From Candidatus Lokiarchaeum ossiferum (GTDB lineage: Archaea; Asgardarchaeota; Lokiarchaeia; Sigyniarchaeales; Promethearchaeaceae), in contig CP104013.1 in assembly GCA_025839675.1 (NCBI GenBank), forward strand, positions 3,690,001 through 3,722,000: a stretch of DNA of 32,000 bases. The letters run 5' to 3'. How positions within the stretch are numbered: position 1 is the first letter of the stretch; each line of letters starts with the position of its first letter. Positions 1,444 through 22,209 of this stretch are shown one piece after another. A model generated the notes under the pieces. That model saw only the letters and a program-made list of their open reading frames with translations, was not told where the DNA came from and did no database searches. Both the position numbers and the translations under genes were made by a program.

Positions 1444-1803
1444 TTACTTCTTTTTTCTTTCCTCATTCTCCCTTTCTGCAATGATGTCTTCTGCCATATC
1501 TGGAAATAGTTTCCTTAAACATGAATCACAATAGCCATGACTGAACCCAGTATCCGTTTTCTCAGTAATGTATTGATCAATTTGCATCCACGCGCCTTCT
1601 TCGGTGAAAACACTTTTACAATTCGAGCATATCACTAAGAAGGATTTTAGAATCTTGATTTCTGAATTTTTTTTCTCCAATTCATCATTTAGCAATTGAA
1701 GATGTTGGTTTTTTTTATGTAAATCTCGTTGGACATTCACCAGCTCGTTATTAAGCTTCATAAGCTCGGTAAGATATTCTTCTTCAGTTTTTTTTGGCAT
1801 CAA
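1444..1803 (-). CDS. Coiled-coil protein with a C-terminal CxxC-x26-HGxCxxC (putative zinc-binding) module
   Basis: 119-aa ORF. Residues ~8-55 are heptad-like (LTELMKLNNELVNVQRDLHKKNQHLQLLNDELEKKNSEIKILK). The C-terminus reads VICSNCKSVFTEEGAWMQIDQYITEKTDTGFSHGYCDSCLRKLFPD. It lies 59 bp downstream of the B12-binding gene on the same strand. Confidence 0.75.
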   Translation of the reverse strand: MMPKKTEEEYLTELMKLNNELVNVQRDLHKKNQHLQLLNDELEKKNSEIKILKSFLVICSNCKSVFTEEGAWMQIDQYITEKTDTGFSHGYCDSCLRKLFPDMAEDIIAERENEERKKK

Positions 1804-1862
1804 GCAGTCATTCCTAAATCATCATTAGATGATCTTTAAAATATTGGAAAAAAAAGTAACGA

Positions 1863-2963
1863 TTATGACCCCTTTTTTATCAGTTCATCAGCAATCTGCA
1901 ATGCAGATTCAATGTCTTTGCCCATTCCATCAGCTCCCACTTCTTTCCATAAATTTTTATTTACCATGAATGGAAATCCACCAACCATTATTTTGATGTT
2001 TGGGTTCTTCGATTTACGAACATTATTAATCAAGCTAACCACTAAGGGGATATTTTGGAACATAGTTGCAGAAATACATAATAAGTCATGATGCTGTAAT
2101 TCTATAATCTGAATTAAATCCGGGGTTGGAGTGTTGGCTCCTAAATAATACGCATCCCATCCATGTAGTTCAAAAATATCTGTCATCAATCGCAATCCCA
2201 TTTCATGTAATTCTCCAGAGATGCATGTTGCGATCAGCGATTTTTCTTTCTTCTGGGGTGTAAAAATATGGAAGTATATCTTTGAAATCACCAATTGAGA
2301 TAAGGATGATGCATAGTGCTCTTGAGCTACTGAAATTTTATTGATCTGCCATAATCTCCCAATTTCATATTGTACTGGCGTAATTACTTGAAGAAATATA
2401 TCTTCAGCAGGAACTCCTTCTTCAAGTTTCGTCATAACTAATTCTATCAATTCATTTTTTTGATTTTTTAAGACTAAATCGAGATAATGTCTCGCCAAGT
2501 CATAATACTTTGTCCCTTCTTTAAGTACTGTTTCTTCTCCATCATAAGGTTCCTTCGTTTTTTCCTTTCCTAAACGTATATAATTTTCCAATTTCTTATG
2601 ATAAGAGACGGGAAGAATTCTTTTTAGTACTTCTTCTAGATATTCAAGGCTTTGGAGAAGGGTGTCTTTTGGAACTCCTCGATAAACAAGAAGCGATTGT
2701 AACCATCCAATATAGTGCGAGAAAGAATTGGGTACATTAAATTCCAATGATTCAATTAGATAAATAAGAGTACGTTTTACATCGCGAAAAGCGAGATCAC
2801 GGTCCAGTTTTGAAAAGGACTGCAATAATTGAGGATAATCTTTGTATTGCAACTCCAATATTTCTTGCGAAATTTGATTTAAATTTTGTAAATGCCCTTC
2901 TAAATATTGTGCGATAGATCCTTCTAATTTACTTTCGATGACAGTTGATTCCATTTCACTCAT
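1863..2963 (-). CDS. Cobalamin (B12)-binding sensor protein, CarH/AerR-like B12 module with an N-terminal all-helical domain and no DNA-binding domain
   Basis: 366-aa ORF. The four-helix-bundle region carries W205-x9-E215-H216 (GRLWQINKISVAQEHYASS). The Rossmann B12 domain carries E251-L-H253-E-M-G256, then 41 residues, S298-A-T300, 27 residues, G328-G329. This is the canonical (D/E)xHxxG-x41-SxL-x26-28-GG spacing. Confidence 0.85.
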   Translation of the reverse strand: MSEMESTVIESKLEGSIAQYLEGHLQNLNQISQEILELQYKDYPQLLQSFSKLDRDLAFRDVKRTLIYLIESLEFNVPNSFSHYIGWLQSLLVYRGVPKDTLLQSLEYLEEVLKRILPVSYHKKLENYIRLGKEKTKEPYDGEETVLKEGTKYYDLARHYLDLVLKNQKNELIELVMTKLEEGVPAEDIFLQVITPVQYEIGRLWQINKISVAQEHYASSLSQLVISKIYFHIFTPQKKEKSLIATCISGELHEMGLRLMTDIFELHGWDAYYLGANTPTPDLIQIIELQHHDLLCISATMFQNIPLVVSLINNVRKSKNPNIKIMVGGFPFMVNKNLWKEVGADGMGKDIESALQIADELIKKGS

Positions 2964-4029: not shown

Positions 4030-7000
4030 TTATCTATCAAGTGGAACTATAATTCCTCCTCCTCCTCCACTCGGAGTCTTTAGCAGGGCAAAATTCTGTG
4101 CATAATTTGAGGTTGTGCTTGAAATTGTTGCAGATTTAGAAAGATACCCTGGTTTTGATACATATATGTTATATGAACTCGTTAAACCTGCATCAATCGT
4201 AACAGAATAATATCCATTACTTGATGTTAATACACTCGCAAGTTGAGAACCACTTGATGTTTTTATTCGTACTGAAGCCCTATATAAACCCGAACCGTAT
4301 TTATATGATACATATCCTCGGATGGTTATTTGACTGGTAGTTCTTAAGACAGTGTTATATCTACGACTTCCGGCATCTGCATCCACAGATTTTGTTTGTG
4401 TCTTATAGCCAGATTTAGAAATTCGCATTTGATAATTTCCATTCAATATCGATGGGAAATTTTTTGTAGCAAAGTAGCCTGAGCTCGCTGTCTGAACTGT
4501 TTGAAGAATAGTTCCTGATGGAGAGATAATCTCTACTTGTGCACTATAAATCTTACTTCCAATAATATTGCTAACATATCCATTATATGAAACAGGAGTT
4601 TTACAATAAACTGAAATAAAATCTAGTTCTACTTTCTGATGCCAATTTGTGCTCCAAGCATCGTTAAATCCCCACATTAATTTTACAGATCCTTGTCCTG
4701 GAATTAGCCCTTTACTTCTAAGTGTTGCTTCAGAAATGATAATAGAACGAGATTTCCATCCACTATCTTTACCACTTTCAAATCCATCCCCACCGTAATT
4801 AGTAGATCTATGTTCATAGTGTTGGAACACATTGAAACCTGAATTTGGATCTGTCGTTAATCCGACAGCAAAGTTTGTTACTGAGCTAGAAGCATAATTG
4901 GATGTGGCACGAATTTTGAAGTCAATTTGAATATCTCCACCACACCAATTACTTAAATCTATTGTATTATAAGTATATCCTTGGCGAGGTGAACTATATC
5001 CAGAGGATGTTTCCTCCATTTTCAGAGAGATATCAGTTTCAGATAGTGAATTCCGAGATGAAGTTCTTAAGGACCAACCACTTGTTGAATCTCCAAATTC
5101 ACTTAATAACAGCGATAAACTTCTATCATCTTTTACAAATATCCAATAAGTTTTTTCTTGAATGTTCCCAACTTTATCTCGAATAGATGTTGAGACATAG
5201 TATTCCCCTGTAGACAATGTGTTGAAGTCAAATTGTGCATAATAATGAGTCCAATCACTCGATATTGAAGAAATACTTCCCTTTTTACTCATTAATTCAT
5301 CACCAGTAGTGCTCATAATGGTGATTTGGAACCCATATTCAGAATCAATTCCCGAATCTATTCTATACGTTGTAGGATTCCCATTATTAAACTGAGGAAA
5401 ATAAACAACGGATTCAGCAGGATCACATACCATAAATCTCAATGTGGTTAATCCATATATTGGATGCGATGGATCAAGAGTTGATCCCAGCACAAATTCT
5501 TGTATACTCATTTCTTTTTCAATAACAGGAGCTATTGAATCAACAGGGTTTTCAATGTAAAAGCTTGCTGAATGTGTAGACTCCAATCCTGCATTATCTA
5601 ACGCGGTAAAATATATTTTATGCCATCCATTCTTTAACCCATAATATTCACGGGCATAATATAATCCCATATGAGCTTTCCATGATGCAAAATAATCTTC
5701 TGTTGCACTACCAGGTGTGACTGACATCTGTTCAATATATCCATGAACATCTGATTGATCATCATCTGAAGAATAAATTACCGGAGTTCTATATTCCACA
5801 GCTTTTATTTCAAAAGAATCATCACCCACCATTTTAAAATGAGATATTCCTGATTCACCATCTATCCATGGAGTCCAAATATAAACATCATCGAGTGTAA
5901 TAGCATCATATAATTCTTCGAACTCTTCACAATCTATATCCATAAGCATGTTTAAAGCAGATATCAGATTGTTACGTTTAACGGGATCTTCCCACATGCT
6001 ATAGCTAAATCCAAAGTACGGATCATAGTTATTTGTAGTAATCAAATAACTATACATCTGTTGATATAAAGCCTCGACTTTTTTGATACTATATTGAGGT
6101 AGAGCTACAGATAATGGATAAATCGTCCCATAACTATGTTCATCATTACCTTCTATTGAAATATAACTTCTAAAATCATCAATATGAAGTTTAAGTAAGT
6201 ATCGAACCATTACGGACTGTGATTTTTCAGGTAAATTTATTTCCGTTCTACCAACATAATTAGTTCCAGAATATGAATAACCACTCAATTGATCTCGAAA
6301 TTTTAATTTATTTGGTGCTGCATCAATACTAACTGTTACTTTCTTCACGCTCGAATCTGTGTTGTAAGTATTATGATCGTCTGTAGTCTCGAAGGTCAAA
6401 CTCTCCTCATCTCCTGATAATGGATTCACAAGCTTAATAAGTTCACAATCCAAACTCCCAACTTGAACAGATTCATCTGTTGTGAGATAATTTTGCCCTG
6501 TAGGGAGATTTGCATGAATTATTATATCACCAATTACTAAATCATTGGTTAAAGTTTGGGAATATATGTAATCCGTTGCTGGCATTGACACAAGATTAAT
6601 TGATGGTGTTTCTCTATCAAATGCTGATCCGGGTTCAATCTCTCCAACACCAGATAAAACTGATTTAATTAAAGGTGGAAGATCAAAGTTTACAAACTCG
6701 GTTATAGAAGGTCCAATTCTTGCTTGATTAGTATAATCCAACAGAATATTTCCAGGGTGAATATCAAGATCTACCTGTGGGGAACCATAAGGTAAGAACC
6801 AGAATTTTTCTTTACTCGATCCATCATGAGCAGTCCATATGTTTACTTCATAATTGGGGATCATCGGAATTTTCGATTCATAACTCGCAGAGATTTCTCC
6901 ACTGATTTTAGGATAATAGGCATATGCATTATCAATTCCAATTCCAAGAGTATCCCAAACAAGCAATGCTTGAACGGGCAATTCAATTCTTAAAAATACA

Positions 7001-8508
7001 TTTGCAGTAATTTTTCCAATTTTAATGTCCAACTCATATTCGTCCCAACCGACTTGGCCATAAACGCTTCCTAATACATTTGCACTCAATCCATCTCCAC
7101 CTAATTGGAATACTGAACTAATTCGGCCACCCATTTCTACAGGTAGCGTAACATTGGGAAGTTTATCCCATTTTTCTTTAAGATCTATACCTATTTCTCC
7201 CTTTATATATACATCTAATTTACCATACAATCGAAACCCTACAGGAATTCCCATTGCATAAGAACCGAAAGGTGCTTCTAGTACTTTATCTTCTCCAAAA
7301 GGACCTTCAGTTTTGACATACGCAATTAATTGGGAAGGATTTTGGTAATTATTATTGATTTCTATGCCAGTTAGATCATGTAAATTGTTTGGATTGGATG
7401 CATAATAGTCTAACAAAAATTCTAGGTTCATTTCTGCATCAATTCCAAAAGTTACTTCTACGGGTACACCCATAACAGTTATTTCTTGATCATATTCAAA
7501 TTCAATTCCAATCTTAATTGCAATAACATCCGCAAAAACATCAAAGTCAATAGCAGAATGTTCTGATGCTTTATAAGTATGAAATTCCCTGCCAATCCAA
7601 AATGAAATTTTTGTATAGTTGTTTACTTTGAAGTTACCACCAATTCCGACAGAAGAATCGAAGTACTGTTCAATATCGAAGTCTGCTGAATCCCCAACTA
7701 TGAGTTTAATTATTTCTTGGAGAAATGCAATACTCGGGTTTTGTGATGCTAGCTTGAAGAAATTTTCAAGTTGAGTGAATAAATCTTCAGCAGTTCTAAC
7801 AATATTGGATTTATAGTGCAATGTATCCATTTTTTCTATGGGATTTAGAATTCTTTCCATAAATTGGTTTTGATCTTCTTCTACAAAATCAACCGCTCTG
7901 TTCAATATTGCTTTGCTTTTGCCATAATTAATCGATTCAAAAGTTGTTCCTACACTCATGGAAACAACAATCGATGCAACCATTTGATCTACAGTTCCCT
8001 CATTTCCTATAATCGTCTTTTCTTTTGAATTATAATCCAATGTTGCTGAGTAGCAAGAAGCAAAATAATGAAATTGGGAACTACTTGCAAAAACATAATT
8101 TCTAACTATTTCCCATTCTAAAGTGAGCTGATCATCAATAATCAATCCATTTTCATCTCCATGGAAGAAATATATTACAATATAATGTTCATTAACTGTT
8201 TCTAAAACATTTTGTAGAGATTCACTAGAAGCTATTGGTATTGTTGTTAATTTCACCTCATCTCCTATTATTACGATGAAATTTGAAAGGCTTTTTTCAA
8301 TGATATTATCAAATTCTGTGTACAAACAGACTATTTCCATTGAATCCTGATCGCTATCTCCATAATTAACAGAATTATTAAACTCCATAAAATCAATTGA
8401 ATCTTCTTTATAAGATTCTTGATAACCAGAACTATACAGTCCAGGTATAATCATTGAAATAACGAACACGAGAATAATTGAATTTATAACAATTTTTTTC
8501 GTTTGCAT
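4030..8508 (-). CDS. Very large secreted or cell-surface protein. It has an N-terminal signal/anchor, a caspase-like His/Cys region, beta-rich middle domains, Ig-like 'DxxGN' modules, a jelly-roll-like domain and two C-terminal carboxypeptidase-regulatory-like (CarboxypepD_reg) repeats.
   Basis: 1492-aa uninterrupted ORF. N-terminus is MQTKKIVINSIILVFVISMIIPGLYSS. Ig-like modules read FTALDNAGLESTHSASFYI and SIRDKVGNIQEKTYWIFV. The C-terminal tandem repeats are YNGYVSN..SGYFAT..NGNYQMRISKSGYKT and IRGYVSY..NGYYSVT..SYNIYVSKPGYLS. The YV...G.Y.......Y.+..SK.GY pattern is typical of the CarboxypepD_reg fold. Confidence 0.85.
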   Translation of the reverse strand: MQTKKIVINSIILVFVISMIIPGLYSSGYQESYKEDSIDFMEFNNSVNYGDSDQDSMEIVCLYTEFDNIIEKSLSNFIVIIGDEVKLTTIPIASSESLQNVLETVNEHYIVIYFFHGDENGLIIDDQLTLEWEIVRNYVFASSSQFHYFASCYSATLDYNSKEKTIIGNEGTVDQMVASIVVSMSVGTTFESINYGKSKAILNRAVDFVEEDQNQFMERILNPIEKMDTLHYKSNIVRTAEDLFTQLENFFKLASQNPSIAFLQEIIKLIVGDSADFDIEQYFDSSVGIGGNFKVNNYTKISFWIGREFHTYKASEHSAIDFDVFADVIAIKIGIEFEYDQEITVMGVPVEVTFGIDAEMNLEFLLDYYASNPNNLHDLTGIEINNNYQNPSQLIAYVKTEGPFGEDKVLEAPFGSYAMGIPVGFRLYGKLDVYIKGEIGIDLKEKWDKLPNVTLPVEMGGRISSVFQLGGDGLSANVLGSVYGQVGWDEYELDIKIGKITANVFLRIELPVQALLVWDTLGIGIDNAYAYYPKISGEISASYESKIPMIPNYEVNIWTAHDGSSKEKFWFLPYGSPQVDLDIHPGNILLDYTNQARIGPSITEFVNFDLPPLIKSVLSGVGEIEPGSAFDRETPSINLVSMPATDYIYSQTLTNDLVIGDIIIHANLPTGQNYLTTDESVQVGSLDCELIKLVNPLSGDEESLTFETTDDHNTYNTDSSVKKVTVSIDAAPNKLKFRDQLSGYSYSGTNYVGRTEINLPEKSQSVMVRYLLKLHIDDFRSYISIEGNDEHSYGTIYPLSVALPQYSIKKVEALYQQMYSYLITTNNYDPYFGFSYSMWEDPVKRNNLISALNMLMDIDCEEFEELYDAITLDDVYIWTPWIDGESGISHFKMVGDDSFEIKAVEYRTPVIYSSDDDQSDVHGYIEQMSVTPGSATEDYFASWKAHMGLYYAREYYGLKNGWHKIYFTALDNAGLESTHSASFYIENPVDSIAPVIEKEMSIQEFVLGSTLDPSHPIYGLTTLRFMVCDPAESVVYFPQFNNGNPTTYRIDSGIDSEYGFQITIMSTTGDELMSKKGSISSISSDWTHYYAQFDFNTLSTGEYYVSTSIRDKVGNIQEKTYWIFVKDDRSLSLLLSEFGDSTSGWSLRTSSRNSLSETDISLKMEETSSGYSSPRQGYTYNTIDLSNWCGGDIQIDFKIRATSNYASSSVTNFAVGLTTDPNSGFNVFQHYEHRSTNYGGDGFESGKDSGWKSRSIIISEATLRSKGLIPGQGSVKLMWGFNDAWSTNWHQKVELDFISVYCKTPVSYNGYVSNIIGSKIYSAQVEIISPSGTILQTVQTASSGYFATKNFPSILNGNYQMRISKSGYKTQTKSVDADAGSRRYNTVLRTTSQITIRGYVSYKYGSGLYRASVRIKTSSGSQLASVLTSSNGYYSVTIDAGLTSSYNIYVSKPGYLSKSATISSTTSNYAQNFALLKTPSGGGGGIIVPLDR

Positions 8509-9077: not shown

Positions 9078-9287
9078 ATGAAAGTATTCGCATGGTCTCC
9101 TATTCGAGAACTCATGAAAAAATCCGGCGCAGAAATGGTCAGCCGAGATGCTGTTGATGAATTAATCACCTACTTAGAAAAATACGCCAAAGACTTAACC
9201 AACAAAGCTTTAGAAATGTCCCGACACTCTGGTCGCAAGAAGTTGACCAAAGCTGACATGGAAATGGCTTTAACCTTAGAAATCTAA
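9078..9287 (+). CDS. Archaeal histone (HMfA/B family, single histone fold)
   Basis: The 69-aa ORF MKVFAWSPIRELMKKSGAEMVSRDAVDELITYLEKYAKDLTNKALEMSRHSGRKKLTKADMEMALTLEI aligns by eye along its whole length to HMfB (..PIAPIGRIIKDAGAERVSDDA...ARHAGRKTIKAEDIELA..). It has a good SD and a T9 terminator. Confidence 0.93.
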   Translation: MKVFAWSPIRELMKKSGAEMVSRDAVDELITYLEKYAKDLTNKALEMSRHSGRKKLTKADMEMALTLEI

Positions 9288-9327: not shown

Positions 9328-9547
9328 CCCCTTTCTTATAACCATAACAAGCGACATTTCATTGCTTAAAAAATTTGAAGAGATACCCGATATTAATAGA
9401 TGTATCCATTTTCATAAAAAATAGTTCAAATCATTCAAAGGATCCGTTCTTCTTAATAAAAAATATTTTTTCCACATAACTTAAAAGATCAGGAATCGCT
9501 ATAAAAGATTAAACCCAAATTTATATAGATTGACCCTAAACTATTGT

Positions 9548-10621
9548 ATGGGAAAAGTTTCTGATCAACGCAAAGGGATTCAATTATTTTTGGGATTAAT
9601 TCTCATAGCTTCCATACCACTAATTAGCGTCATGATCATTGCCTATCGCCCTGAAAAAATAACTTCGAATGAAAACTTTTTTACAAATACCATAAAAGGG
9701 GATCCGGGAGTTGATATTGCAAATTATTCCCTAATTATCAACGGGGAAATTGAAAATCAGTTGAATTACTCCTATGATGAATTCAAAGCACTCCCCAATA
9801 CTACTTTCATAGCAACATTGCAATGTGTTGAGGGACCTTCTTCCACAGCTGAGTTTACTGGAGTGTTAGTTAGTGATTTGCTCGATCTCGCAATTATCAA
9901 TGCCACAGCCCATGATGTAATTTTTTATGGTCTCGATGGATATAGTTCTTCGTTAACTATAGAAGAAGTTTATAATAGTACGATTCTCCTTGCCTATGAA
10001 ATGAATGGTGCTCCCTTACCCCCCGAAACTGGATATCCCCTAGGTATTGTGGCTCCAGGGCATTTAGGTTATAAGTGGGTCCAATGGGTTTATGAAATTA
10101 AAGTTACCACTGAAGATTATCATGGGTATTGGGAATCAAGGGGGTGGGCCGATGATGCGCAATACGATATCGTGTCAGGTTGGGAAATGCATGCCATATT
10201 ATTTTCCATTGCATTCTTTTTTGGCGTTCTGGCTCAAAGTACAGGCTTGAAATTTACTGCAAGGGAATCAAGGATGAAAGAGCTTCCAAAATTTGTAAAT
10301 TCTCAATTTCATCTGGTTGTTTCGATAACCTATATTCTCTCCATCATTGGGATCTTAGTCTATTGGAGTGTAGTCACTTATAATCGGCGGGGAAATCTGT
10401 TTTATACCTTGCACGGATGGACTGCCTTGCTTTCCGTGCTTTTTCATATAATCGGAGGTATTTTAGGAAGACAGCGTTCCATGAATCGGAAAAAAAACCG
10501 AGAAAAACACTTCAATTTTCATCTTGTTGGATTTCTTCTATTTTGCTTCACAATTTTTTTGGGAATCTTGCGAACTACTAACTATGGGGTATCCTTCGGC
10601 TCCTATTTTAATTTTTCTTAA
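9548..10621 (+). CDS. Molybdopterin-dependent oxidoreductase domain (sulfite oxidase / YedY-MsrP family) fused to a C-terminal His-bearing 4-TM module
   Basis: N-terminal anchor is GIQLFLGLILIASIPLISVMIIAY. The Moco-oxidoreductase pattern is YSLIINGEIENQLNYSYDEFKALP...ATLQCVEG...FTGVLVSDLL...LLAYEMNGAPLPPETGYPLGIVAPGHLGYKWVQWVYEIKV. Four TM segments follow with His residues (MHAILF, FHLVV, LHGW..FHIIGG, FHLVGF). The track starts at TTG 9530. I prefer ATG 9548. Confidence 0.8.
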   Translation: MGKVSDQRKGIQLFLGLILIASIPLISVMIIAYRPEKITSNENFFTNTIKGDPGVDIANYSLIINGEIENQLNYSYDEFKALPNTTFIATLQCVEGPSSTAEFTGVLVSDLLDLAIINATAHDVIFYGLDGYSSSLTIEEVYNSTILLAYEMNGAPLPPETGYPLGIVAPGHLGYKWVQWVYEIKVTTEDYHGYWESRGWADDAQYDIVSGWEMHAILFSIAFFFGVLAQSTGLKFTARESRMKELPKFVNSQFHLVVSITYILSIIGILVYWSVVTYNRRGNLFYTLHGWTALLSVLFHIIGGILGRQRSMNRKKNREKHFNFHLVGFLLFCFTIFLGILRTTNYGVSFGSYFNFS

Positions 10622-14421: not shown

Positions 14422-17400
14422 TTAAAACTTGTAGAAATACTGATTGATCGGTTTCCGCATTCGGAAGTAAGTGCTGGTGAAATACAGTAGAAAAGAAAAT
14501 CCCACTAAAACACCTAGTACCAAAGCAAGTTCTGGAAAATTGAACATTACTGGGAGGTTATATTTATATACGGACCACGACCCATAACCCCCTGTTATGG
14601 AATAACTTTTCATCCAGGCCCAAGAAGTTATGAATCCTCCCACCAGTCCAATGAATAATGAAAGACTGAAGATCACAACTAATTGGGTGATAACAAATCC
14701 CACTAATTTCTTTTTTCCAAATCCTCTGACTAACATAAGTCCATGAAATTGTTCATTTTCTCGTTGGAAATTTAAATTGGTGATAGCTAATCCGAGGGTG
14801 CATAGGAATCCGATGATTAATAGATTTATATATAACATGCTAAAATACGCGGTGCTTGTATATCCTGCTGATGGTTGAAGAGTGAAAGAGTTTTGGGTCA
14901 GGGAATTCCATTCATGATCATAAAAAGTGAAGGTAGGTGCGTGAAGATTTGGAGGCGCGATTTTACTAATTTCTTGGGTGAGGTTTTCAAGATTTTCTAA
15001 AATAGACATATCAACATCGAGAAAAACCTTCAATTGGCCTATTTGAACTTGTTTAAAGGAAGTATTTAAGAATTGACGATCAATTAACATCATTTCTCCA
15101 TCAAAAGCACCACCTCCATACCAAGAACCTTGATCTTTGCTAGTTATGAAATCTGGGGTTATTCCTGGAAGTAAATTAACTTCCTGAAGTATTTTGACTT
15201 GAATTGGAATTGTTTCATTGAAATCATCTGACACCTCATAAGTATGTTGCTGAATTTCAATGACATTTCCAACTTCAACATTATGATTTTCTAAAAAATC
15301 ATGATTGACAATGACACCTGGGATAGAATTGGCAGAATTTTGATTGAAATCGATTATATCTTGGATTTGAAGAACTAATTGTCTATTGGGAATGAGGTAA
15401 CCATTTTCGCTAATCATTGCCAAGTATTTAGTGAAATCCAAATAGGAAACCATCCCTCGATCTTCAATTCCAAAATTCATCCACCAAAATGATTTTTGTT
15501 GATAATTATTGATGACAAGTGATACAACTGAATTTATAAGCAAATCTCCATTTTGATTTTGGATTTTTAATAGATTTTCTTCAAATAATTCAAGAGAAGA
15601 CACATTTAAAATCATAGGTGTAAAACCATCTTCTTTATCAGATTGATTAAATGGAGAAGCCATTTTTATTTGAATATCCGCCCCAGTTTCAAAATTATCT
15701 TTTATTAAATCCTCACGATGCACAGTATTGATATTAACATTGGCAAAGACAAGTAATGAAGCGAAGAGACTTAACAAGAAGATCATCTGACGATATGGTT
15801 TTCTTCGAATCAATTCTAACCCAATTAATGTTGAATGCTCCTTCATAAAACAAGATGCAATTTTTTTCGATACCCGTGCAAATCTTATGGGTGATTCTAC
15901 GACAAAATATCTAACAATACCAATGATCAGCAATACTGGCATCAAAAATGAAAGAACAGATAAAATTCCTGAAAATTCTTCAATCTTTGCGCTAATTTCA
16001 AGAAACACATCGGGAATACTTGGTATAGTTCCAATCAGATAAATCAGAGTTATTACAAAAGGAATTAATGTGGGTATGATCAGTTTTAATCCCCATTTGG
16101 ATATTTTCTTTTCTGCCTTTTCTATTGGTGTCTCATATAGATTATGATCTTTTCCATTATTTTCTGCATCAAGTTTTCCACTTTCTTCATATATGAGCTC
16201 ACTATACAGTGAATTCAAACCATTTTTATCCAACTCTGCCTGCATCTGATGAATTTTCAAGCGTTTTAATTTATAAAACGTATAAATGCTCCCTAGGGCT
16301 GCTAGCGTGATGCAATATAAGAAATTAGTTACAAATGTTCCAAATCTAAAAATTAAAGGAATAAGAGTTGATGGGGGTGCATCAATTTCGTTGAAATAAT
16401 AATGGGTTATAGTTCCATAACGATCAATTTGGACATGATAATTATGTAGAAATTGTCCATTAAGCCATGGTTGAACAATATAAAATACTCCAATCGCAAG
16501 TAAGATGCTGATTAATGAAGCAACTATTCCAATCATTAAGGATTCTAATAGTAACTGATTTCGAATGACATTTTTTGGCATCCCCTTTGTTCTCATGTAG
16601 AGGAATTCATCGAAACGAGATTTAAATCGTAAATTTATTGCTATTGATCCCAAAAATAAAGAAAAAATTATCACTGGGATGGTTGTCAAAGCAATTTTTG
16701 CACGTTTTTCAATGTCCTTATCTAGATCTCCTGTGATCGCAGAATCGATATTGTTTCTAATTATAATATTTGATGGGATTTCATTGGATAAAGCATTCAC
16801 TTGACTCCCGATTCGTTGAACTTCACTAGAAAGCGTGTTAACATTAATAGCTTTGCGATCATAACTTAAGCCTATGCCTTTTTCTACTTGATATGTGATC
16901 GAATTATTAATACGGGAATTACAATTTAAATTATTAAAAAATATGTTGAAAGAATGAAATTCTCGTTGAGAATCTTGTTCATAGTCAATCAGACCAAAAA
17001 TTGGGGTCTTGACCAACCCATATTGATATAAATTTGATAGTAAGATATCATCGGAGGATGTGTAAGGAGTATTAAAAAATTCAGTAGTTCCAATTGCATA
17101 GGTGCTACGTTTTGGAGTAAAAATACCCACAATCTTCACATTTTCCCAACTAAAACTCGAAGTGTCATTAATCATAGATGTTTTAATAAAGATAGGGAGT
17201 GCCGAATAAGTCTGAACTTGAAGATTTAAATGCGATGCAAGGAGAGCATCGATGATAATCTCATTTTCATTTTGGGGTGCATATCCTTCAATAATCTGAA
17301 AATAATCTTGGAATCTTTGAGTTGCAAAAAAATCTTTATTAAACAAGGATAAAGACAGTTGACTACTCTCAAATTCTGCTAATCCTGCCGGAATATCCTC

Positions 17401-17754
17401 ACTTTGAGAATAATTCTTAAAAAGTAGAAGATTTGAAGAAGAAATTGTAGTATATTGATCAATTGATTCGAGATCAAGTCTCGATCTACGTGCCTCTTTT
17501 AAATAGTCTGGCTCTTCCCCTTCAAAGCGGTCACTAAAATTTAAGGAACTTTCGGGATGGGAATATTGGTCTAATAAAGAAATATCATAAATATTAACAA
17601 ATTTTTGAGAGAGATTGTAATAATTGGCTCCATTGAAATAAAGGGTAATGCCTGTAATTAAAGAAATAGCTAGACCCAATGAAATAATTGTAAGGATAGA
17701 TTTCTTAATATTATTCGCTGATTGGTTCAAATAAAATGTTGCTGTGATATTCAT
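14422..17754 (-). CDS. ABC transporter permease, MacB/FtsX type, with two FtsX modules and two large extracytoplasmic domains (paralogue B)
   Basis: 1110-aa ORF. It has an N-terminal TM, a ~310-aa external domain containing the MacB-PCD-like IIEGYAPQNENEIIIDALLASHLNL, and 3 TM. After a cytoplasmic linker comes a second TM set, a second external domain beginning GADIQIK, and a final 3-TM FtsX module. An AGGGA SD lies before the ATG. Confidence 0.85.
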   Translation of the reverse strand: MNITATFYLNQSANNIKKSILTIISLGLAISLITGITLYFNGANYYNLSQKFVNIYDISLLDQYSHPESSLNFSDRFEGEEPDYLKEARRSRLDLESIDQYTTISSSNLLLFKNYSQSEDIPAGLAEFESSQLSLSLFNKDFFATQRFQDYFQIIEGYAPQNENEIIIDALLASHLNLQVQTYSALPIFIKTSMINDTSSFSWENVKIVGIFTPKRSTYAIGTTEFFNTPYTSSDDILLSNLYQYGLVKTPIFGLIDYEQDSQREFHSFNIFFNNLNCNSRINNSITYQVEKGIGLSYDRKAINVNTLSSEVQRIGSQVNALSNEIPSNIIIRNNIDSAITGDLDKDIEKRAKIALTTIPVIIFSLFLGSIAINLRFKSRFDEFLYMRTKGMPKNVIRNQLLLESLMIGIVASLISILLAIGVFYIVQPWLNGQFLHNYHVQIDRYGTITHYYFNEIDAPPSTLIPLIFRFGTFVTNFLYCITLAALGSIYTFYKLKRLKIHQMQAELDKNGLNSLYSELIYEESGKLDAENNGKDHNLYETPIEKAEKKISKWGLKLIIPTLIPFVITLIYLIGTIPSIPDVFLEISAKIEEFSGILSVLSFLMPVLLIIGIVRYFVVESPIRFARVSKKIASCFMKEHSTLIGLELIRRKPYRQMIFLLSLFASLLVFANVNINTVHREDLIKDNFETGADIQIKMASPFNQSDKEDGFTPMILNVSSLELFEENLLKIQNQNGDLLINSVVSLVINNYQQKSFWWMNFGIEDRGMVSYLDFTKYLAMISENGYLIPNRQLVLQIQDIIDFNQNSANSIPGVIVNHDFLENHNVEVGNVIEIQQHTYEVSDDFNETIPIQVKILQEVNLLPGITPDFITSKDQGSWYGGGAFDGEMMLIDRQFLNTSFKQVQIGQLKVFLDVDMSILENLENLTQEISKIAPPNLHAPTFTFYDHEWNSLTQNSFTLQPSAGYTSTAYFSMLYINLLIIGFLCTLGLAITNLNFQRENEQFHGLMLVRGFGKKKLVGFVITQLVVIFSLSLFIGLVGGFITSWAWMKSYSITGGYGSWSVYKYNLPVMFNFPELALVLGVLVGFSFLLYFTSTYFRMRKPINQYFYKF

Positions 17755-17774
17755 GTTTTTTCCCTGAAATTCAT

Positions 17775-18815
17775 TTACACTAAATCTTTTTTTACATTAA
17801 ATATTGCTACGTTTTGGAAATTCATTGAATGACAATTTAAACATGCAATAGAAAGGGTCGTAATCATTTGAGAACCATGAATGTGGAACGCTGATAAATT
17901 TTTATCATATCCTTTGAGTATATTTTTTGAATGACAAATTGGACATTCAGTAATTGACTCCATCTTGAATATATCTTGAGGTTCCTCAATTAATACCTTA
18001 GATTGCTCATGCTTTGGTTTAATATCGATAATTTGGCTATTTTCATCAGAATAATCATACTCATTAGAATTCAGATCCTTCATTGCCATCTTACCAATTT
18101 CCCGTACGAATTGACCATCGCGAATAATATATGTACGATCTGCAATTTTACGGAACGCAGGATCATGAGTTACAATGATCATGGCCTTATCTGGATATTT
18201 TTCCATGTTTTGATGGAAGATTCCCATGATTTTTTCTGCAGATACAGAATCTATGTTACCTGTGGGTTCATCTGCCAGAATAAGTTTTGGATTGTTAGCA
18301 AACGCTTGTGCAATGGCGACTCGTTGTTTTTCCCCACCAGATAATGTAAAAGGACGGTGCCGGGTTCGATTCTTTAGACCAACATCATTCAATAACTCTT
18401 CAACCCGCGTTTTTCTTTCACTTTTCGGTTTCTTGGCCACAATCATTGGCATTTCTACATTTCCGGCAGCTGTTAAGCTTGGGATCAGATTGAAAAATTG
18501 AAAAATGATGCCAATATCATTTTGAAGGAGCTGTTGAATCCCTTCATCTTTCAATCGACTTATTTCCAATTCTTTTACCTTCACGCTTCCTGCATTAGGG
18601 CGTTCTAATCCTGCTATGATATTTAATAGGGTGGTTTTTCCAGATCCGCTCGGACCCATGATCACAACTAGTTCGCCTGGATAGACAGTTAAATCTATAT
18701 TGTTAAGGGCAATGACTTCCAAATGGCCTTGTTTATAAATTTTGTAGACTCCCTCCAGCGATACAGCAGGGCTTTTTTGCTCGATGTTTTTTTCGTTTGA
18801 ATCTTCTTCAGACAT
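17775..18815 (-). CDS. ABC transporter ATP-binding protein (MacB/LolD-like, COG1136 type) with a C-terminal zinc-ribbon extension
   Basis: Walker A is GPSGSGKTT, the Q-loop region is IIFQFFNL, the signature is LSGGEKQR, Walker B is LILADEPT, and the H-loop is VTHD. The extra ~110-aa tail ends with CPICHS-x28-CLNCHS. I place the start at ATG 18815 (MSEEDSNEK). It is preceded by GAGGA and lies 16 nt after the upstream stop, so it is shorter than the track ORF. Confidence 0.92.
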   Translation of the reverse strand: MSEEDSNEKNIEQKSPAVSLEGVYKIYKQGHLEVIALNNIDLTVYPGELVVIMGPSGSGKTTLLNIIAGLERPNAGSVKVKELEISRLKDEGIQQLLQNDIGIIFQFFNLIPSLTAAGNVEMPMIVAKKPKSERKTRVEELLNDVGLKNRTRHRPFTLSGGEKQRVAIAQAFANNPKLILADEPTGNIDSVSAEKIMGIFHQNMEKYPDKAMIIVTHDPAFRKIADRTYIIRDGQFVREIGKMAMKDLNSNEYDYSDENSQIIDIKPKHEQSKVLIEEPQDIFKMESITECPICHSKNILKGYDKNLSAFHIHGSQMITTLSIACLNCHSMNFQNVAIFNVKKDLV

Positions 18816-18831
18816 ATGAATTCCTCGTGAA

Positions 18832-21800
18832 TTATTTTTTTTCAAAATGTTTTGCAAGGGTTTTCTTTGTAATTCGGGAAAACCCAATAAACCAGATTAC
18901 TAGTGTCATTGAAAAAGTGATAAGTATTATTGATCCGATTTCCAAGATATTGGGGTATATGGGTAAATTTAATTCATGCCTTGTATAGGCTGAACTCCAC
19001 GTATAATATCCTAAACTAGACCAAGTTTCGGTATTTTGTATTAATTTTAGCATAATGTAGGTAGAAAAAAAAGCTGTTAGAATTGCCGGTACTATTGCTA
19101 ATATAAAAATAGTAAGAATTTGAGTTAGTTTTATCTTTGTTAATTTACGGTTTCCGATCCCCTTTGATTTAAACAGGGCATCATAGGGGATATTATTCTT
19201 CTGAATCGCAATTAGAAATAACCCTAAGGTGATCCCAAAAAATATACTCACTATAAGTGATGCCATATATGCAATCTCAATCAAGGGTTCACTATTTATC
19301 GAAAATACGGAGATATCATTCCATTTTTGATTATAAAACTGAATTTTGCTATTTTGATCAAATATCGGAAAAGTGGTTGCAGTTCGATTTTCGAGTAATT
19401 TTTGAGTTATTTCAGCAGGTAATTCTCCTTTAGAATTCAAATTTAAATCAAAGAGGAAGGTTAGTTGCTCTGCTTTATGATTGTAGGTGGAAATTTGATC
19501 AATTTCTGAGGAATCTATGAAAATTAATTTCGAAAATATATCTGGGGCCAAATTATAATCTGGAAAAACACCAGGTAATCTTTCTACCGACCCTAAAATT
19601 TTGCAATTCAAAGACACAAAATTTGGGGTTCCATTCATATCTTTATAATATCTGTAAGTTACCCGAATTTCATCATCAATCATCCATTCACCAGTTAAAA
19701 ATCCTGGAGTTACGAGTATGCCGATATTAGATTTATCTGGATTTGAGTTATATTCATTAATCGATTCAATCTGTTTCATTAACTTATGATTAGGTAGAAT
19801 TTTGTTTCCTTCTTGTATAATAGTTTGATAATCCTCAAAATCAAACAACATCATGGATTTCTCATTATTTTCATATACTTCAGTATTTTTTTCTTGAAAT
19901 AAGATGGGCATCCCATGGTTCACAACCGGATTTCCTTTAGTATCGGTAAATTCTTGCAACTCTTGAGACCAAGAGTTCCATTGTGTTTGGTTGAAATTCA
20001 ATTTCGCTTCAGAGTTAAATTGGACCTTCATATCCGCTCCTATTATGAAGTTTTCATGAATTTTTCCATAATGAATGTAAGAATGGGTCCCAATATTCAC
20101 CCCCACAAATAATGTTATAAAAATGGCAAATAAGGTTAAAATCCGGGAGAGATCTTTTCTTTTAATAAAATTGAGTCCGATTAGATAATCAAATTCTCGA
20201 ATAAAGGGATGAGCTATTTTTTTGGCAACCCGTGCTAAAATAGAAGGTTTTTCCTTGCTGATTAATCGAAAAATTCCATATATTAGTGAAAGGGGGCATA
20301 TCACTGAAATATTTACTAAGTAATATCGTTGATTCAATCTTGCAATGAAATACATGAAATTATCAGAGATTCCATCTATTAGGGATATTTGAACCAGGAA
20401 AAAGAATAATATTGGGAAAAATCCGACTATAATGAATAAATAAGACCATTTAAAAGTCAATTTTTCAATTTCTTCGATATCATTTTCATAAATTTGGTCA
20501 TCGGAGGGATCTAACTGTGGTGCTGATTGGGAGATTTTAGTTTTTTTGCCATATTTGAGCCATTTTTTAAAGGGACTGAAGGCTTTACTTGACTTAAATT
20601 TATTCGTTTTTCTCTTAAACCATTTAAATTTTGATTTTTTGTCTTGTTTCGCTGTAAATAGTGTTGATTCATCATAAATTCCTGAAAAATCTTCAGACCC
20701 GTTCTCAGTGAGTAAATCTGTTAGCGCCATGTTTTTAAAAAATTTAGCAGATTTGTAATTAGATAACAAGGAAATCAAGATTCCCAATCCAAATGTTAGA
20801 AAAATAGATGGGATTCCAATCTGTGGTGAAATTGAAGCACTTACATCCAAGTCAAATGCATAAGGGGTGATCACTTTGTTAAGAATTGGGAATATTACAA
20901 GTCCTCCTAAAAGCGCTAGCGTGGATGAAATCATTCCTATCATCAGAATTTCAATTAAATTTTGCTTTTGAATGGATTTCTTTGAAACACCTTTACTTAA
21001 TAGTAATAAAAATTCTTGAATCCGATCTTGACGGCCAATGTTCAATGAATTTGCCCCCAAAAGTAAACAAAATATCAAAATAGGTATGATCATAATGGCT
21101 GATATCTCTTGGATCGTGTAGCCAGCATAGTCAGTGTTAAGTAATGATTCTTCAATGTATGACTTTAAAAGTATATCTTCTGGCAATTCCCGACGTAATT
21201 GAGTTACCTTGAGGTTAATTTCACTAATTTCTGCTTGTAAGCGATTAAATTTCACTAGTGATTTAGGATATAGTAAGGATAAACCTGTAGAAAAAGGAAC
21301 ATCTATACCATTTGGAATGAATTTTGCTCGTAACGTCTCATTTGTATACAGCTCATTCAAATAATCTATTATAGGATAAGATTTTGTGAAATCTGTAAAA
21401 TTATATGTCCAAAAACATGGAAGGTCTATTAAAATGTCGTTAGATAGTTGACTTGCAATCGAAACATCTGGGGAAAGATAATCGGCATAATTATATCGAG
21501 GATAGTATCTATTTCCAGTTAAGGAAAAATAATTATTTGAAGCCACGTAGATTCCAGCTACTGAATAGTTTGTGAACACAATATCTTCAAATTTATCTTG
21601 CACTGAGCTGTAATCAGAGTAATAATTATTAGCTGATAATCCCAGACGCATTGTCAAATCTATGGTCTTATTGACTCCAAAATCATATGATTTTGCCATT
21701 TCAACTGGAATCATTACTTCATTGGGGTTTTGAGGATATTTTCCCTCAACAATATTGATGATTTTTTTAAATCGGGTGGATTCATAGAAGTCTTCCCCCA

Positions 21801-22209
21801 AGAAATAGAAAGATATGGGAAAGCGTTTTTGATTTTCAGGTAGAGCATTTCCATCATCAAAAGATCCTTTAAAATTGGATCCTTGTGTGGAGTAGAGATA
21901 TCCGTTTTGATCAATATTAAAGCGCCCGAAAGGATGAGATTCTTCTATCGGCAGTGGAGAATTCTCTAAAATTGAATCTAACTCGATTTGGGACTTCAAA
22001 TAATGATCTGAGAAATGGAGTGTTGGATTTTGATAGGAAAGAAGAAAATCATCCATATAGTAAAAACTGTTATAAAAATTATATTCTTGCGCGGCTATGG
22101 TGTAATTTTGGAATCCACTAACCATCGACAGCCCTAAAGAAAATATGATTATAACTAAAATTGAATGACGAATTGAACAAAACGCTTGTTTGAGATTGAA
22201 TGTGAACAT
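18832..22209 (-). CDS. ABC transporter permease, MacB/FtsX type, with two FtsX modules and two large extracytoplasmic domains (paralogue A)
   Basis: 1125-aa ORF with the same architecture as 14422-17754. Matching blocks are IVEGKYPQNPNEVMIPVEMAKSY vs IIEGYAPQNENEIIIDALLASH, IGADMKVQF vs TGADIQIKM, and RLPGVFPDY vs LLPGITPDF. Confidence 0.85.
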   Translation of the reverse strand: MFTFNLKQAFCSIRHSILVIIIFSLGLSMVSGFQNYTIAAQEYNFYNSFYYMDDFLLSYQNPTLHFSDHYLKSQIELDSILENSPLPIEESHPFGRFNIDQNGYLYSTQGSNFKGSFDDGNALPENQKRFPISFYFLGEDFYESTRFKKIINIVEGKYPQNPNEVMIPVEMAKSYDFGVNKTIDLTMRLGLSANNYYSDYSSVQDKFEDIVFTNYSVAGIYVASNNYFSLTGNRYYPRYNYADYLSPDVSIASQLSNDILIDLPCFWTYNFTDFTKSYPIIDYLNELYTNETLRAKFIPNGIDVPFSTGLSLLYPKSLVKFNRLQAEISEINLKVTQLRRELPEDILLKSYIEESLLNTDYAGYTIQEISAIMIIPILIFCLLLGANSLNIGRQDRIQEFLLLLSKGVSKKSIQKQNLIEILMIGMISSTLALLGGLVIFPILNKVITPYAFDLDVSASISPQIGIPSIFLTFGLGILISLLSNYKSAKFFKNMALTDLLTENGSEDFSGIYDESTLFTAKQDKKSKFKWFKRKTNKFKSSKAFSPFKKWLKYGKKTKISQSAPQLDPSDDQIYENDIEEIEKLTFKWSYLFIIVGFFPILFFFLVQISLIDGISDNFMYFIARLNQRYYLVNISVICPLSLIYGIFRLISKEKPSILARVAKKIAHPFIREFDYLIGLNFIKRKDLSRILTLFAIFITLFVGVNIGTHSYIHYGKIHENFIIGADMKVQFNSEAKLNFNQTQWNSWSQELQEFTDTKGNPVVNHGMPILFQEKNTEVYENNEKSMMLFDFEDYQTIIQEGNKILPNHKLMKQIESINEYNSNPDKSNIGILVTPGFLTGEWMIDDEIRVTYRYYKDMNGTPNFVSLNCKILGSVERLPGVFPDYNLAPDIFSKLIFIDSSEIDQISTYNHKAEQLTFLFDLNLNSKGELPAEITQKLLENRTATTFPIFDQNSKIQFYNQKWNDISVFSINSEPLIEIAYMASLIVSIFFGITLGLFLIAIQKNNIPYDALFKSKGIGNRKLTKIKLTQILTIFILAIVPAILTAFFSTYIMLKLIQNTETWSSLGYYTWSSAYTRHELNLPIYPNILEIGSIILITFSMTLVIWFIGFSRITKKTLAKHFEKK

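Follow-up and report, generated by a model that had tools for sequence, protein, structure and literature searches.

The 32,000-nucleotide stretch of the Candidatus Lokiarchaeum ossiferum genome analyzed here, referred to below as the window, carries on its reverse strand (-) a gene for a 366-residue protein (1863..2963, from an ATG start and including the stop codon) with the domain series photoglobin, B12-binding_2, and B12-binding. As a whole, this gene and its surroundings are best explained, with somewhat better than even confidence, as encoding a stand-alone sensor of the photocobilin type, in which an N-terminal photoglobin lies against a CarH-like cobalamin-binding module and which signals to a protein encoded downstream. 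Judged from its sequence, the sensor is almost certainly a member of the photoglobin-B12 ("photocobilin") family, and by analogy with characterized relatives it probably detects light through adenosylcobalamin (AdoCbl). The architecture itself is already known: it has been described computationally, a prediction of the family dates from 2021 and its validation from 2024, and members from archaea are on record. The sole unusual feature of the sensor locus is a tiny signaling neighbor at the place where relatives have a histidine kinase.

Photocobilins are B12 photoreceptors in which a CarH-like module is fused to a five-helix, biliverdin-binding globin (Zhang et al., 2024; PMC10979010). This family was shown in 2024 to sense light with AdoCbl and biliverdin and to act via protein contacts, and its characterized members exhibit light-driven loss of the adenosyl group, a change from dimer to monomer, and, in the case of stand-alone members, control of enzymes in trans (PMC10979010).

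Sensor Gene and Cobalamin-Binding Module

The sensor is 100% identical to the database protein NEF87_003106 of Candidatus Lokiarchaeum ossiferum, annotated in that organism as "hypothetical," and this identity bears out the archaeal host proposed in a preliminary description of the sequence; the G+C content of the window is ~33%. An AlphaFold2 model of the sensor (predicted local distance difference test score, pLDDT, 89.8; predicted template modeling score, pTM, 0.85) has helices at residues 7-137, in line with the earlier view that the first ~160 residues are all-helical, as the modeled helices extend over the first ~140 of them. These are followed by an inter-domain linker at residues 138-153 (2505..2552, -), which has no secondary structure in the model and shows low conservation in alignment A1, a set of 50 full-length sensor homologs that also formed the basis of the profile search. 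The Pfam scan identified B12-binding_2 (PF02607) at residues 157-226 (E 3.4e-13) and B12-binding (PF02310) at residues 243-354 (E 5e-17), within a four-helix bundle of residues 154-233 (2265..2504, -) and a Rossmann-type domain of residues 241-366 (1866..2243, -), respectively, and the CarH-type B12-binding module of the preliminary description is thereby upheld. The same scan placed no family on the first ~150 residues, and neither MerR nor any other DNA-binding family was detected in the Pfam and NCBIfam scans, as had also been claimed.

By script, the cap residues W205, E215, and H216 are encoded at nucleotides 2349-2351, 2319-2321, and 2316-2318, and the Rossmann motif residues E251, H253, and G256 at 2211-2213, 2205-2207, and 2196-2198. 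The motifs of the Rossmann domain run E251-x-H253-x-x-G256, 41 residues, S298-x-T300, 27 residues, and G328-G329; the residues, coordinates, and spacers reported earlier for this series and for W205-x9-E215-H216 were reproduced exactly. In column statistics taken over 120 sensor homologs, W205, E215, H216, H253, G275, P279, and G328-G329 are invariant (120/120). Because of the Pfam matches and this invariance, the sensor motifs are not regarded as a product of chance. All four light-response motifs scored by SignatureFinder are present in the sensor, namely, G202xxW205, E215H216, G250xxH253, and G275xxxP279, with G250 kept in 97 of the 120 homologs; GxxW, EH, GxxH, and GxxxP form the published signature of light-responsive cobalamin domains (PMC11796333).

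In alignments, the cap segment EIGRLWQINKISVAQEH of the sensor matches EIGVLWQANRWSVAQEH of SasPcob, and the corresponding W...EH segments of AbPcob and CtMerR can be aligned with it as well, whereas the corrinoid protein 1Y80 has F...EV at the positions where the sensor has W...EH. In the SasPcob crystal structure, the residues equivalent to the cap W and EH contact the adenosyl group (PMC10979010). By analogy, we infer that G202-x-x-W205 together with E215-H216 caps the upper axial (adenosyl) face, and that H253 would be the lower axial His, with AdoCbl bound in the base-off/His-on form. The residue after W205 is not His but Q206, and Gln occupies this position in 106 of the 120 homologs and in SasPcob as well. 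In TtCarH, the His beside the cap Trp is H132, which serves as the upper ligand once the light state is reached. Because Gln follows the cap Trp as in SasPcob, a water- or hydroxide-ligated light state is expected rather than the bis-His state of CarH.

The closest solved relatives by sequence are, in order, 8J2W/8J2X ("Cobalamin-binding protein," 1e-25) and 8J2Y (AbPcob photoreceptor domain, 1e-17), and further matches in the PDB are the CtMerR cobalamin-binding domain 8JBS (6e-15), TtCarH 5C8A (2e-8), and MtmC 3EZX (1.6e-5). The first two are photocobilins, 8J2W/8J2X being SasPcob and 8J2Y being AbPcob (Zhang et al., 2024; PMC10979010). In a Foldseek search with the whole model, light-responsive cobalamin modules ranked first (8J2W, root-mean-square deviation [rmsd] 2.0 Å over 205 columns); only the cobalamin module was aligned because the domain order is permuted, and the globin was thus modeled separately. 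The preliminary description had proposed a corrinoid-dependent, possibly light-gated sensor that works through protein contact, and this proposal gains support by analogy, as the best solved relatives are light-responsive cobalamin domains, with methyltransferase corrinoid proteins further down the rankings, and stand-alone photocobilins have been shown to act through protein contacts (PMC10979010).

N-Terminal Photoglobin Domain

The N-terminal domain, residues ~17-137 (2553..2915, -), had been called vaguely RsbR-N/globin-like in the preliminary description, and profile and fold searches now place it among the globins. To judge from sequence and model, it is a photoglobin, a phycobiliprotein-like and non-heme globin, an identity that follows from the profile search, the fold search, and the precomputed annotation of homologs. 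The initial PDB sequence search gave a weak second alignment between query residues 51-114 and the C-terminal globin of SasPcob. The A1 profile matches 8J2X at 4.5e-41 overall in two independent stretches, one being the cobalamin module (independent E-value [i-E] 1e-31) and the other the N-terminal domain against SasPcob 230-320 (i-E 6e-6); its N-terminal region also matches ApcF, allophycocyanin, and phycocyanin chains at 1e-6 to 1e-3. When an AlphaFold2 model of residues 1-144 (pLDDT 87.8) was compared with the PDB by Foldseek, all of the 50 best matches were phycobiliprotein-type globins, smURFP, or 8J2X, with rmsd values of 2.3-2.6 Å for smURFP and 2.6 Å over 123 columns for 8J2X and query-normalized TM scores of 0.66-0.74. 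In addition, many sensor homologs carry a precomputed match to PF00502 (phycobilisome protein); the L. ossiferum sensor alone gave no match to this family at E<=1 in the Pfam scan.

Pocket residues were compared with SasPcob, for which the PDB chain numbering equals the numbering of the paper minus six, as derived from W61, E71/H72, and H108. D61 of the sensor aligns with Asp270 of SasPcob, which binds biliverdin, and W87 aligns with Trp296, a residue packed on bilin ring D and hydrogen-bonded to the corrin (PMC10979010). D61, F81, and W87 are found in 120/120 homologs and Y84 in 118/120, and Y68 is likewise retained in the L. ossiferum sensor. Photoglobins typically have a CXQD motif (PMC10151467). 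The corresponding stretch of the sensor reads A-F-R-D, and the distal Cys/Ser/Thr three residues before the Asp is absent; covalent bilin attachment is therefore excluded, and non-covalent binding is uncertain. The missing Cys/Ser/Thr does not exclude the sensor from the family, because SasPcob binds biliverdin non-covalently although it, too, has no Cys there (PMC10979010). Overall, it is conceivable that the sensor globin binds a bilin, with the balance tilted slightly toward doubt.

Family Distribution

A protein search with the sensor returned 684 clusters at E<=1e-5; among the matches listed, the proteins are ~350 residues long with near end-to-end coverage of the query, and the best non-self match is ~40% identical. 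In a scan at one genome per species, at least 568 genomes contain a relative of the sensor. Bacterial hosts belong to many phyla and include Chloroflexota, Acidobacteriota, Heliobacterium, Paenibacillus, Bacteroidota, Verrucomicrobia, and deltaproteobacteria, and archaeal hosts include Promethearchaeota BC3, Methanotrichaceae, Methanobacterium, and one unclassified archaeon. A rough neighbor-joining tree built from 24 family members had a star-like shape and put the L. ossiferum protein on a long branch, and BLOSUM62 distances from this protein to all other tree members are 0.61-0.68; therefore, no claim is made on origin or horizontal transfer.

In the photocobilin paper, AlphaFold models are divided into groups that carry the B12 module at one end of the protein or the other (PMC10979010). 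The globin-first architecture is accordingly not new, and it is only the cobalamin-first version that has been characterized experimentally. Much less is new than the preliminary description implied, since the architecture is named, abundant, and listed for archaea (PMC8717448, PMC10979010). A limited literature search found neither a characterized archaeal B12 photoreceptor nor any work linking Lokiarchaea to cobalamin photoreceptors.

Candidate Downstream Partner Protein and Its Helix

The candidate signaling partner is encoded by the adjacent gene on the same strand (1444..1800, -), with 118 residues from the ATG at 1800 or 119 residues from the TTG at 1803. This neighbor is called as a 118-residue gene in three assemblies, and a word-indexed protein search with the 119-residue form matched only its 98% identical L. 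ossiferum counterpart, P0121. Since P0121 differs from the partner at 2% of positions and sits on a 6.27-Mb contig, whereas the 100% identical copy of the sensor is on a 6.03-Mb contig, two L. ossiferum genome versions or strains are apparently represented. The N-terminus of the 118-residue partner reads EEEYLTELMKLNNELVNVQRDLHKKNQHLQLLNDE and contains the signaling-helix motif Y9-LTELMKLNNELVNVQRDLHKKN-31 (1708..1776, -), which matches the conserved helix located before HisKA in kinases encoded beside sensor homologs.

The three closest sensor homologs each have a histidine kinase gene directly downstream, and among the 60 related loci with a called adjacent open reading frame (ORF) on the same strand, HATPase_c was found in 49 and HisKA in 45. 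In these partner kinases, the consensus of the helix just before the H-box is YxELxRLNNELxxxQRELAKKNxxLExLNxxKNxFLGxAAHDLRNPL. Residues 1-56 of the partner, numbered from the TTG, were searched against 2,748 ORFs of related loci and gave 75 matches at E<1e-2, the best of which (5.7e-9) is the partner kinase of Promethearchaeota BC3. No match was obtained with 19 of 20 shuffled queries or with the reversed query, and coiled-coil bias as the source of the helix match was rejected on these controls. A strict pattern of the helix motif occurs in 31 of the 2,748 ORFs, every one of which adjoins or is fused to a sensor.

A helix protein is adjacent to the sensor in 65 loci, to which inspection added seven where the ORF caller had over-extended the start, and sensor and helix protein are fused in one polypeptide in two; six loci have no helix protein, and in five the contig ends too soon. 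Thus, the sensor is linked to a helix-bearing protein, adjacent or fused, in ~92% of the 80 evaluable loci. One fusion (L017:775-2724, +) comprises sensor residues 7-354, the LNNEL...QRELAKKN helix from residue 394, and a histidine-kinase H-box at 428, and the other (L045:4031-5725, +) is a 564-residue sensor fusion without the strict helix motif. A functional link between sensor and helix protein is supported because such natural fusions exist. The domains that follow the helix vary among partners, being HisKA, PAS, or other kinase types, and from these sequences the partner helix appears to behave like an input-coupling signaling helix. Most partner kinases also have an N-terminal domain of ~100-130 residues before the helix, which has no Pfam match (e.g., L020:5023-6225 and L081:5009-6223), as well as a second, weaker copy of the helix (ELxxIxNEQxNxLR) ~35 residues before the main one. 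When the N-terminus (residues 1-190) of the partner kinase from Promethearchaeota BC3 was used as the query, no second helix-bearing protein was found in L. ossiferum. Overall, the chances that the 118-residue neighbor is the partner of the sensor, as judged from these sequences, are evenly poised.

As a separate observation, downstream of the sensor at the locus of the closest homolog (P0002, 40% identity; L004:5672-12053 and L005) come genes for a kinase, a REC-PAS protein, KaiB, and a KaiC-like double ATPase. It may be that light is fed into a Kai-type clock module through this arrangement.

Four-Cysteine Domain of the Candidate Partner

After the helix, residues 57-100 of the partner (1501..1632, -) form a four-cysteine domain with the pattern C58-x2-C61 ... 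H88-G-x-C91-x2-C94, which is probably metal-binding. An exhaustive search yielded 15,663 representative clusters matching this domain, which proteins P0122-P0270 carry as well, at E<=1e-3. In most cases it forms the C-terminal part of a longer protein, with PAS, REC, or HAMP domains present in those examined, and it is also found in stand-alone proteins of 83-141 residues. The consensus is LPICSxCKKIRDDxGxWxxIExYIxxHSxAxFTHGICPxCxxKLYP. It has no Pfam (E<=10), NCBIfam, or PDB sequence match beyond noise, and a literature search on the motif returned nothing relevant.

In three deltaproteobacterial loci, the order is sensor, kinase, and then a REC-PAS-coiled-coil protein that ends in the four-cysteine domain and matches the window protein at E 2e-18. 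Among the 150 best four-cysteine-domain proteins, only the L. ossiferum partner has the kinase-type helix. By its sequence, the 118-residue partner therefore looks like a kinase input helix joined directly to a response-regulator output domain.

Proposed Mechanism and Alternative Explanations

In the proposed mechanism, the photoglobin would be packed against the CarH-like cobalamin-binding module, in which AdoCbl would be held base-off/His-on by H253 and its adenosyl group capped by W205, E215, and H216, as homology to SasPcob and AbPcob suggests. On the same homology, ultraviolet-to-green light would break the Co-C bond and the E215/H216 helix would shift; the dimer interface would be lost, and the changed oligomeric or surface state would alter engagement of the partner protein. 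With the D61/W87 pair kept, the globin may hold a linear tetrapyrrole and thereby widen the range of wavelengths sensed. The gene neighborhoods suggest that the signal would pass via protein contact to the downstream-encoded protein, through its signaling helix. Since helix and four-cysteine domain are directly joined in the L. ossiferum protein, a route without phosphorelay is suggested; that the sensor in fact signals in this way through a minimal helix and four-cysteine effector, as a short circuit of the sensor, kinase, and response-regulator pathway, is a tentative and rather unlikely proposition.

Several points weigh against the photocobilin-type explanation. L. ossiferum is an anaerobe from sediment, where light is scarce, and an O2-dependent heme oxygenase for biliverdin synthesis is not expected in an anaerobe; neither a heme oxygenase nor a cobalamin gene was found among the scanned ORFs of the window. 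The globin is N-terminal in L. ossiferum (17-137, with the cobalamin module at 154-366), whereas it is C-terminal in the crystallized photocobilins, and identity to these is only ~25% over the aligned cobalamin module. Within the globin, position 58 is A (S in 48, C in 48, and A in 3 of the 120 homologs), position 64 is R (Y in 100/120), and position 65 is T (H in 107/120), and these three residues make bilin binding by the sensor uncertain. In the 62-bp spacer between sensor and partner (1801..1862, -), the sensor stop codon is immediately followed by a T8 run, and a TTTAAA box precedes the partner ATG by ~35 nt; together, the two elements resemble an archaeal terminator and then a promoter; this suggests that the partner may have its own promoter, and the two genes may thus be transcribed separately. 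Finally, the 118-residue partner lacks the ~130-residue N-terminal domain of most partner kinases, and the sensor contact surface may sit in that missing domain.

In dark, anoxic sediment the protein might instead sense the availability, form, or redox state of cobalamin independently of light, using the CarH-like pocket for ligand discrimination only. The anaerobic life of L. ossiferum in sediment is compatible with such a role, and homologs turn up frequently among strict anaerobes and organisms that are not phototrophic (Methanobacterium, Methanotrichaceae, Desulfomonile, Syntrophaceae, and Anaerolineae). Moreover, the enzyme activity of AbDPcob is altered in the dark by AdoCbl binding alone (PMC10979010). 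However, the residues that separate light-responsive from enzymatic cobalamin domains are invariant across the family, all characterized proteins with the signature are photoactive (PMC10979010, PMC11796333), and the family is present in the phototroph Heliobacterium. A light-independent sensor is accordingly considered improbable. Another reading accepts light sensing and confines it to B12, the globin having lost or never had bilin binding and serving as a corrin-edge shield or a partner-docking surface. It finds its basis in A58, R64, and T65, which stand in place of the family S/C, Y, and H, in the absence of a heme oxygenase from the scanned window ORFs, and in the anaerobic habit of the host, where oxygen-dependent biliverdin synthesis is unexpected. 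AbPcob, with one pocket substitution, also binds biliverdin weakly; SasPcob, however, binds it non-covalently without the Cys (PMC10979010). Because D61, Y68, F81, Y84, and W87 are retained and the Arg-Asp of the phycobiliprotein CXRD motif is preserved in A-F-R-D, all of which speak against a globin without bilin binding, a photoreceptor working with B12 only is a possibility that we hold to be somewhat unlikely.

The sensor may also be real and its 118-residue neighbor incidental, with the actual recipient of the signal, a kinase or some other protein, encoded at another place in the 6-Mb genome. The partner contains the family-specific helix, which among the 2,748 ORFs is found almost only in sensor-adjoining proteins; it is the sole carrier of this helix among the 150 best four-cysteine-domain proteins, and its four-cysteine domain recurs in the sensor operon of the three deltaproteobacteria. 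These facts are at odds with an incidental neighbor, whereas the spacer with its T8 run and TTTAAA box, the lack of the N-terminal domain of most partner kinases, and an examination that covered the window and one flank would favor it, and this reading is judged unlikely on balance. By contrast, a methyltransferase-cognate corrinoid protein of the MtaC/MtbC/MtmC type, shuttling methyl groups, is very hard to reconcile with the data, even though many homologs bear the JGI label 'methanogenic corrinoid protein MtbC1,' the NCBIfam models MtgC and MtbC match at E 1e-13 and 6e-10, and the profile matches 1Y80, 4JGI, and 3EZX at 1e-19 to 3e-14 over the Rossmann part. The NCBIfam methyltransferase-corrinoid models score only 15-51 bits on the sensor against curated cut-offs of 215-450, the cap is W...EH as opposed to the F...EV of 1Y80, an extra globin domain is present, and the conserved neighbor is a histidine kinase; no methyltransferase genes were found among window ORFs of at least 90 residues and the sensor neighbors, or in the L001 flank. 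The methyl-carrier reading is therefore essentially excluded on the missed cut-offs, the cap residues, and the gene context, and the placement with MtaC/MtmC-type proteins that the preliminary description had named as contrary to its proposal was not found.

Other Genes in the Window

Around the sensor and partner, the window encodes several other proteins. On the forward strand, a 141-residue membrane protein with a weak DUF4405 match (E 0.005) is convergent to the partner gene (982-1407, +), a 69-residue histone-fold protein (CBFD_NFYB_HMF / Histone) lies at 9078-9287 (+; L001:3677-3886), and an Oxidored_molyb (molybdopterin oxidoreductase) domain is fused to a DUF4079 / cytochrome b561-like membrane domain at 9530-10621 (+). 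The reverse strand carries a 1,492-residue protein with a hydrophobic N-terminus, C-terminal CarboxypepD_reg repeats, and Ig-like domains, which is probably a large surface protein (4030-8508, -), a MacB-like transporter cluster with FtsX-type permeases of 1,110 and 1,125 residues around an ABC ATPase (14422-22209, -), and a kynureninase-like protein (Aminotran_5 and KYNU_C; 25031-26335, -).

Significance

This analysis offers a specific, testable function in place of the "hypothetical protein" label in a cultured Asgard archaeon, Ca. L. ossiferum, and corrects the misleading "MtbC1 corrinoid protein" label on many homologs. What is new is the helix-bearing partner, usually a histidine kinase, at ~92% of evaluable loci and the chimeric 118-residue partner of L. 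ossiferum. The partner module with its LNNELxxxQRELAKKN helix and the natural sensor-kinase fusions hint at where stand-alone photocobilins may dock, which the 2024 paper left open (PMC10979010). In addition, the partner draws attention to a very widespread four-cysteine signaling domain that matches no Pfam, NCBIfam, or PDB entry.

If the sensor is photoactive, light or a light-labile cofactor state would be an environmental input for a Lokiarchaeon, and since L. ossiferum is in culture, this input can be tested directly. If the sensor does signal through the helix and four-cysteine effector without phosphorelay, the pair of the sensor and the 118-residue protein would offer the simplest system at hand for working out what the four-cysteine domain (at least 15,663 clusters) does, and it would represent light sensing in a cultured Asgard archaeon with no earlier such link in the literature searched.

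Comparison With Known Systems

Methyltransferase corrinoid proteins (MtmC 3EZX, MttC 7XCN, 1Y80, and 4JGI) share with the sensor a helical cap and a Rossmann fold with DxHxxG...SxL...GG, but they have neither the W...EH cap nor a globin and are encoded together with methyltransferases rather than kinases. AerR/PpaA proteins (PDB 7TE2) are stand-alone cobalamin-binding antirepressors that, like the predicted sensor, act on a partner protein and not on DNA. However, AerR has no globin, and 7TE2 is a distant fold match (rank 37, 16% identity); no CrtJ/PpsR-like gene was found near the sensor among the scanned window ORFs and the flank in L001.

CarH/LitR of Thermus thermophilus and Myxococcus xanthus, which are AdoCbl photoreceptor repressors, exhibit closer similarities, namely, the four-helix bundle and Rossmann module, W-x9-E-H, and the lower axial His in ExHxxG, and their AdoCbl photolysis chemistry would be expected in the sensor too. 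There are also differences, as the sensor lacks the MerR-type DNA-binding domain and the His adjoining the Trp for a bis-His state. The NCBIfam CarH model NF052513 gives 55 bits against a cut-off of 400, and the similarity to CarH (2e-8) is far weaker than that to photocobilins.

In 2021, the photoglobin family was described as being fused to B12-binding_2 and B12-binding, located "either before or after" the globin, in bacteria and archaea, in operons with two-component signaling genes that include S-helix transmitters (Schneider et al., 2021; PMC8717448). The L. ossiferum sensor has exactly the architecture described but lacks the C/S of the CXQD-type motif of the family, and, within the accessible portion of that paper, the partner helix motif and the four-cysteine domain do not appear (PMC8717448). 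The 2021 study was computational, and 'Asgard' or 'Lokiarch' is nowhere in its text (PMC8717448).

Photocobilins themselves differ from the L. ossiferum system in their pocket residues, in their host (an actinobacterium as opposed to an Asgard archaeon), and in their neighbors, which are STAS/SpoIIE or a fused diguanylate cyclase rather than a helix and four-cysteine protein. The sensor nevertheless shares with SasPcob and AbPcob the CarH-like module with W-x9-EH and (D/E)xH and the phycobiliprotein-like globin. With SasPcob, in particular, it shares the stand-alone format, the Asp and Trp contacts, and a cap Trp that has no His beside it.

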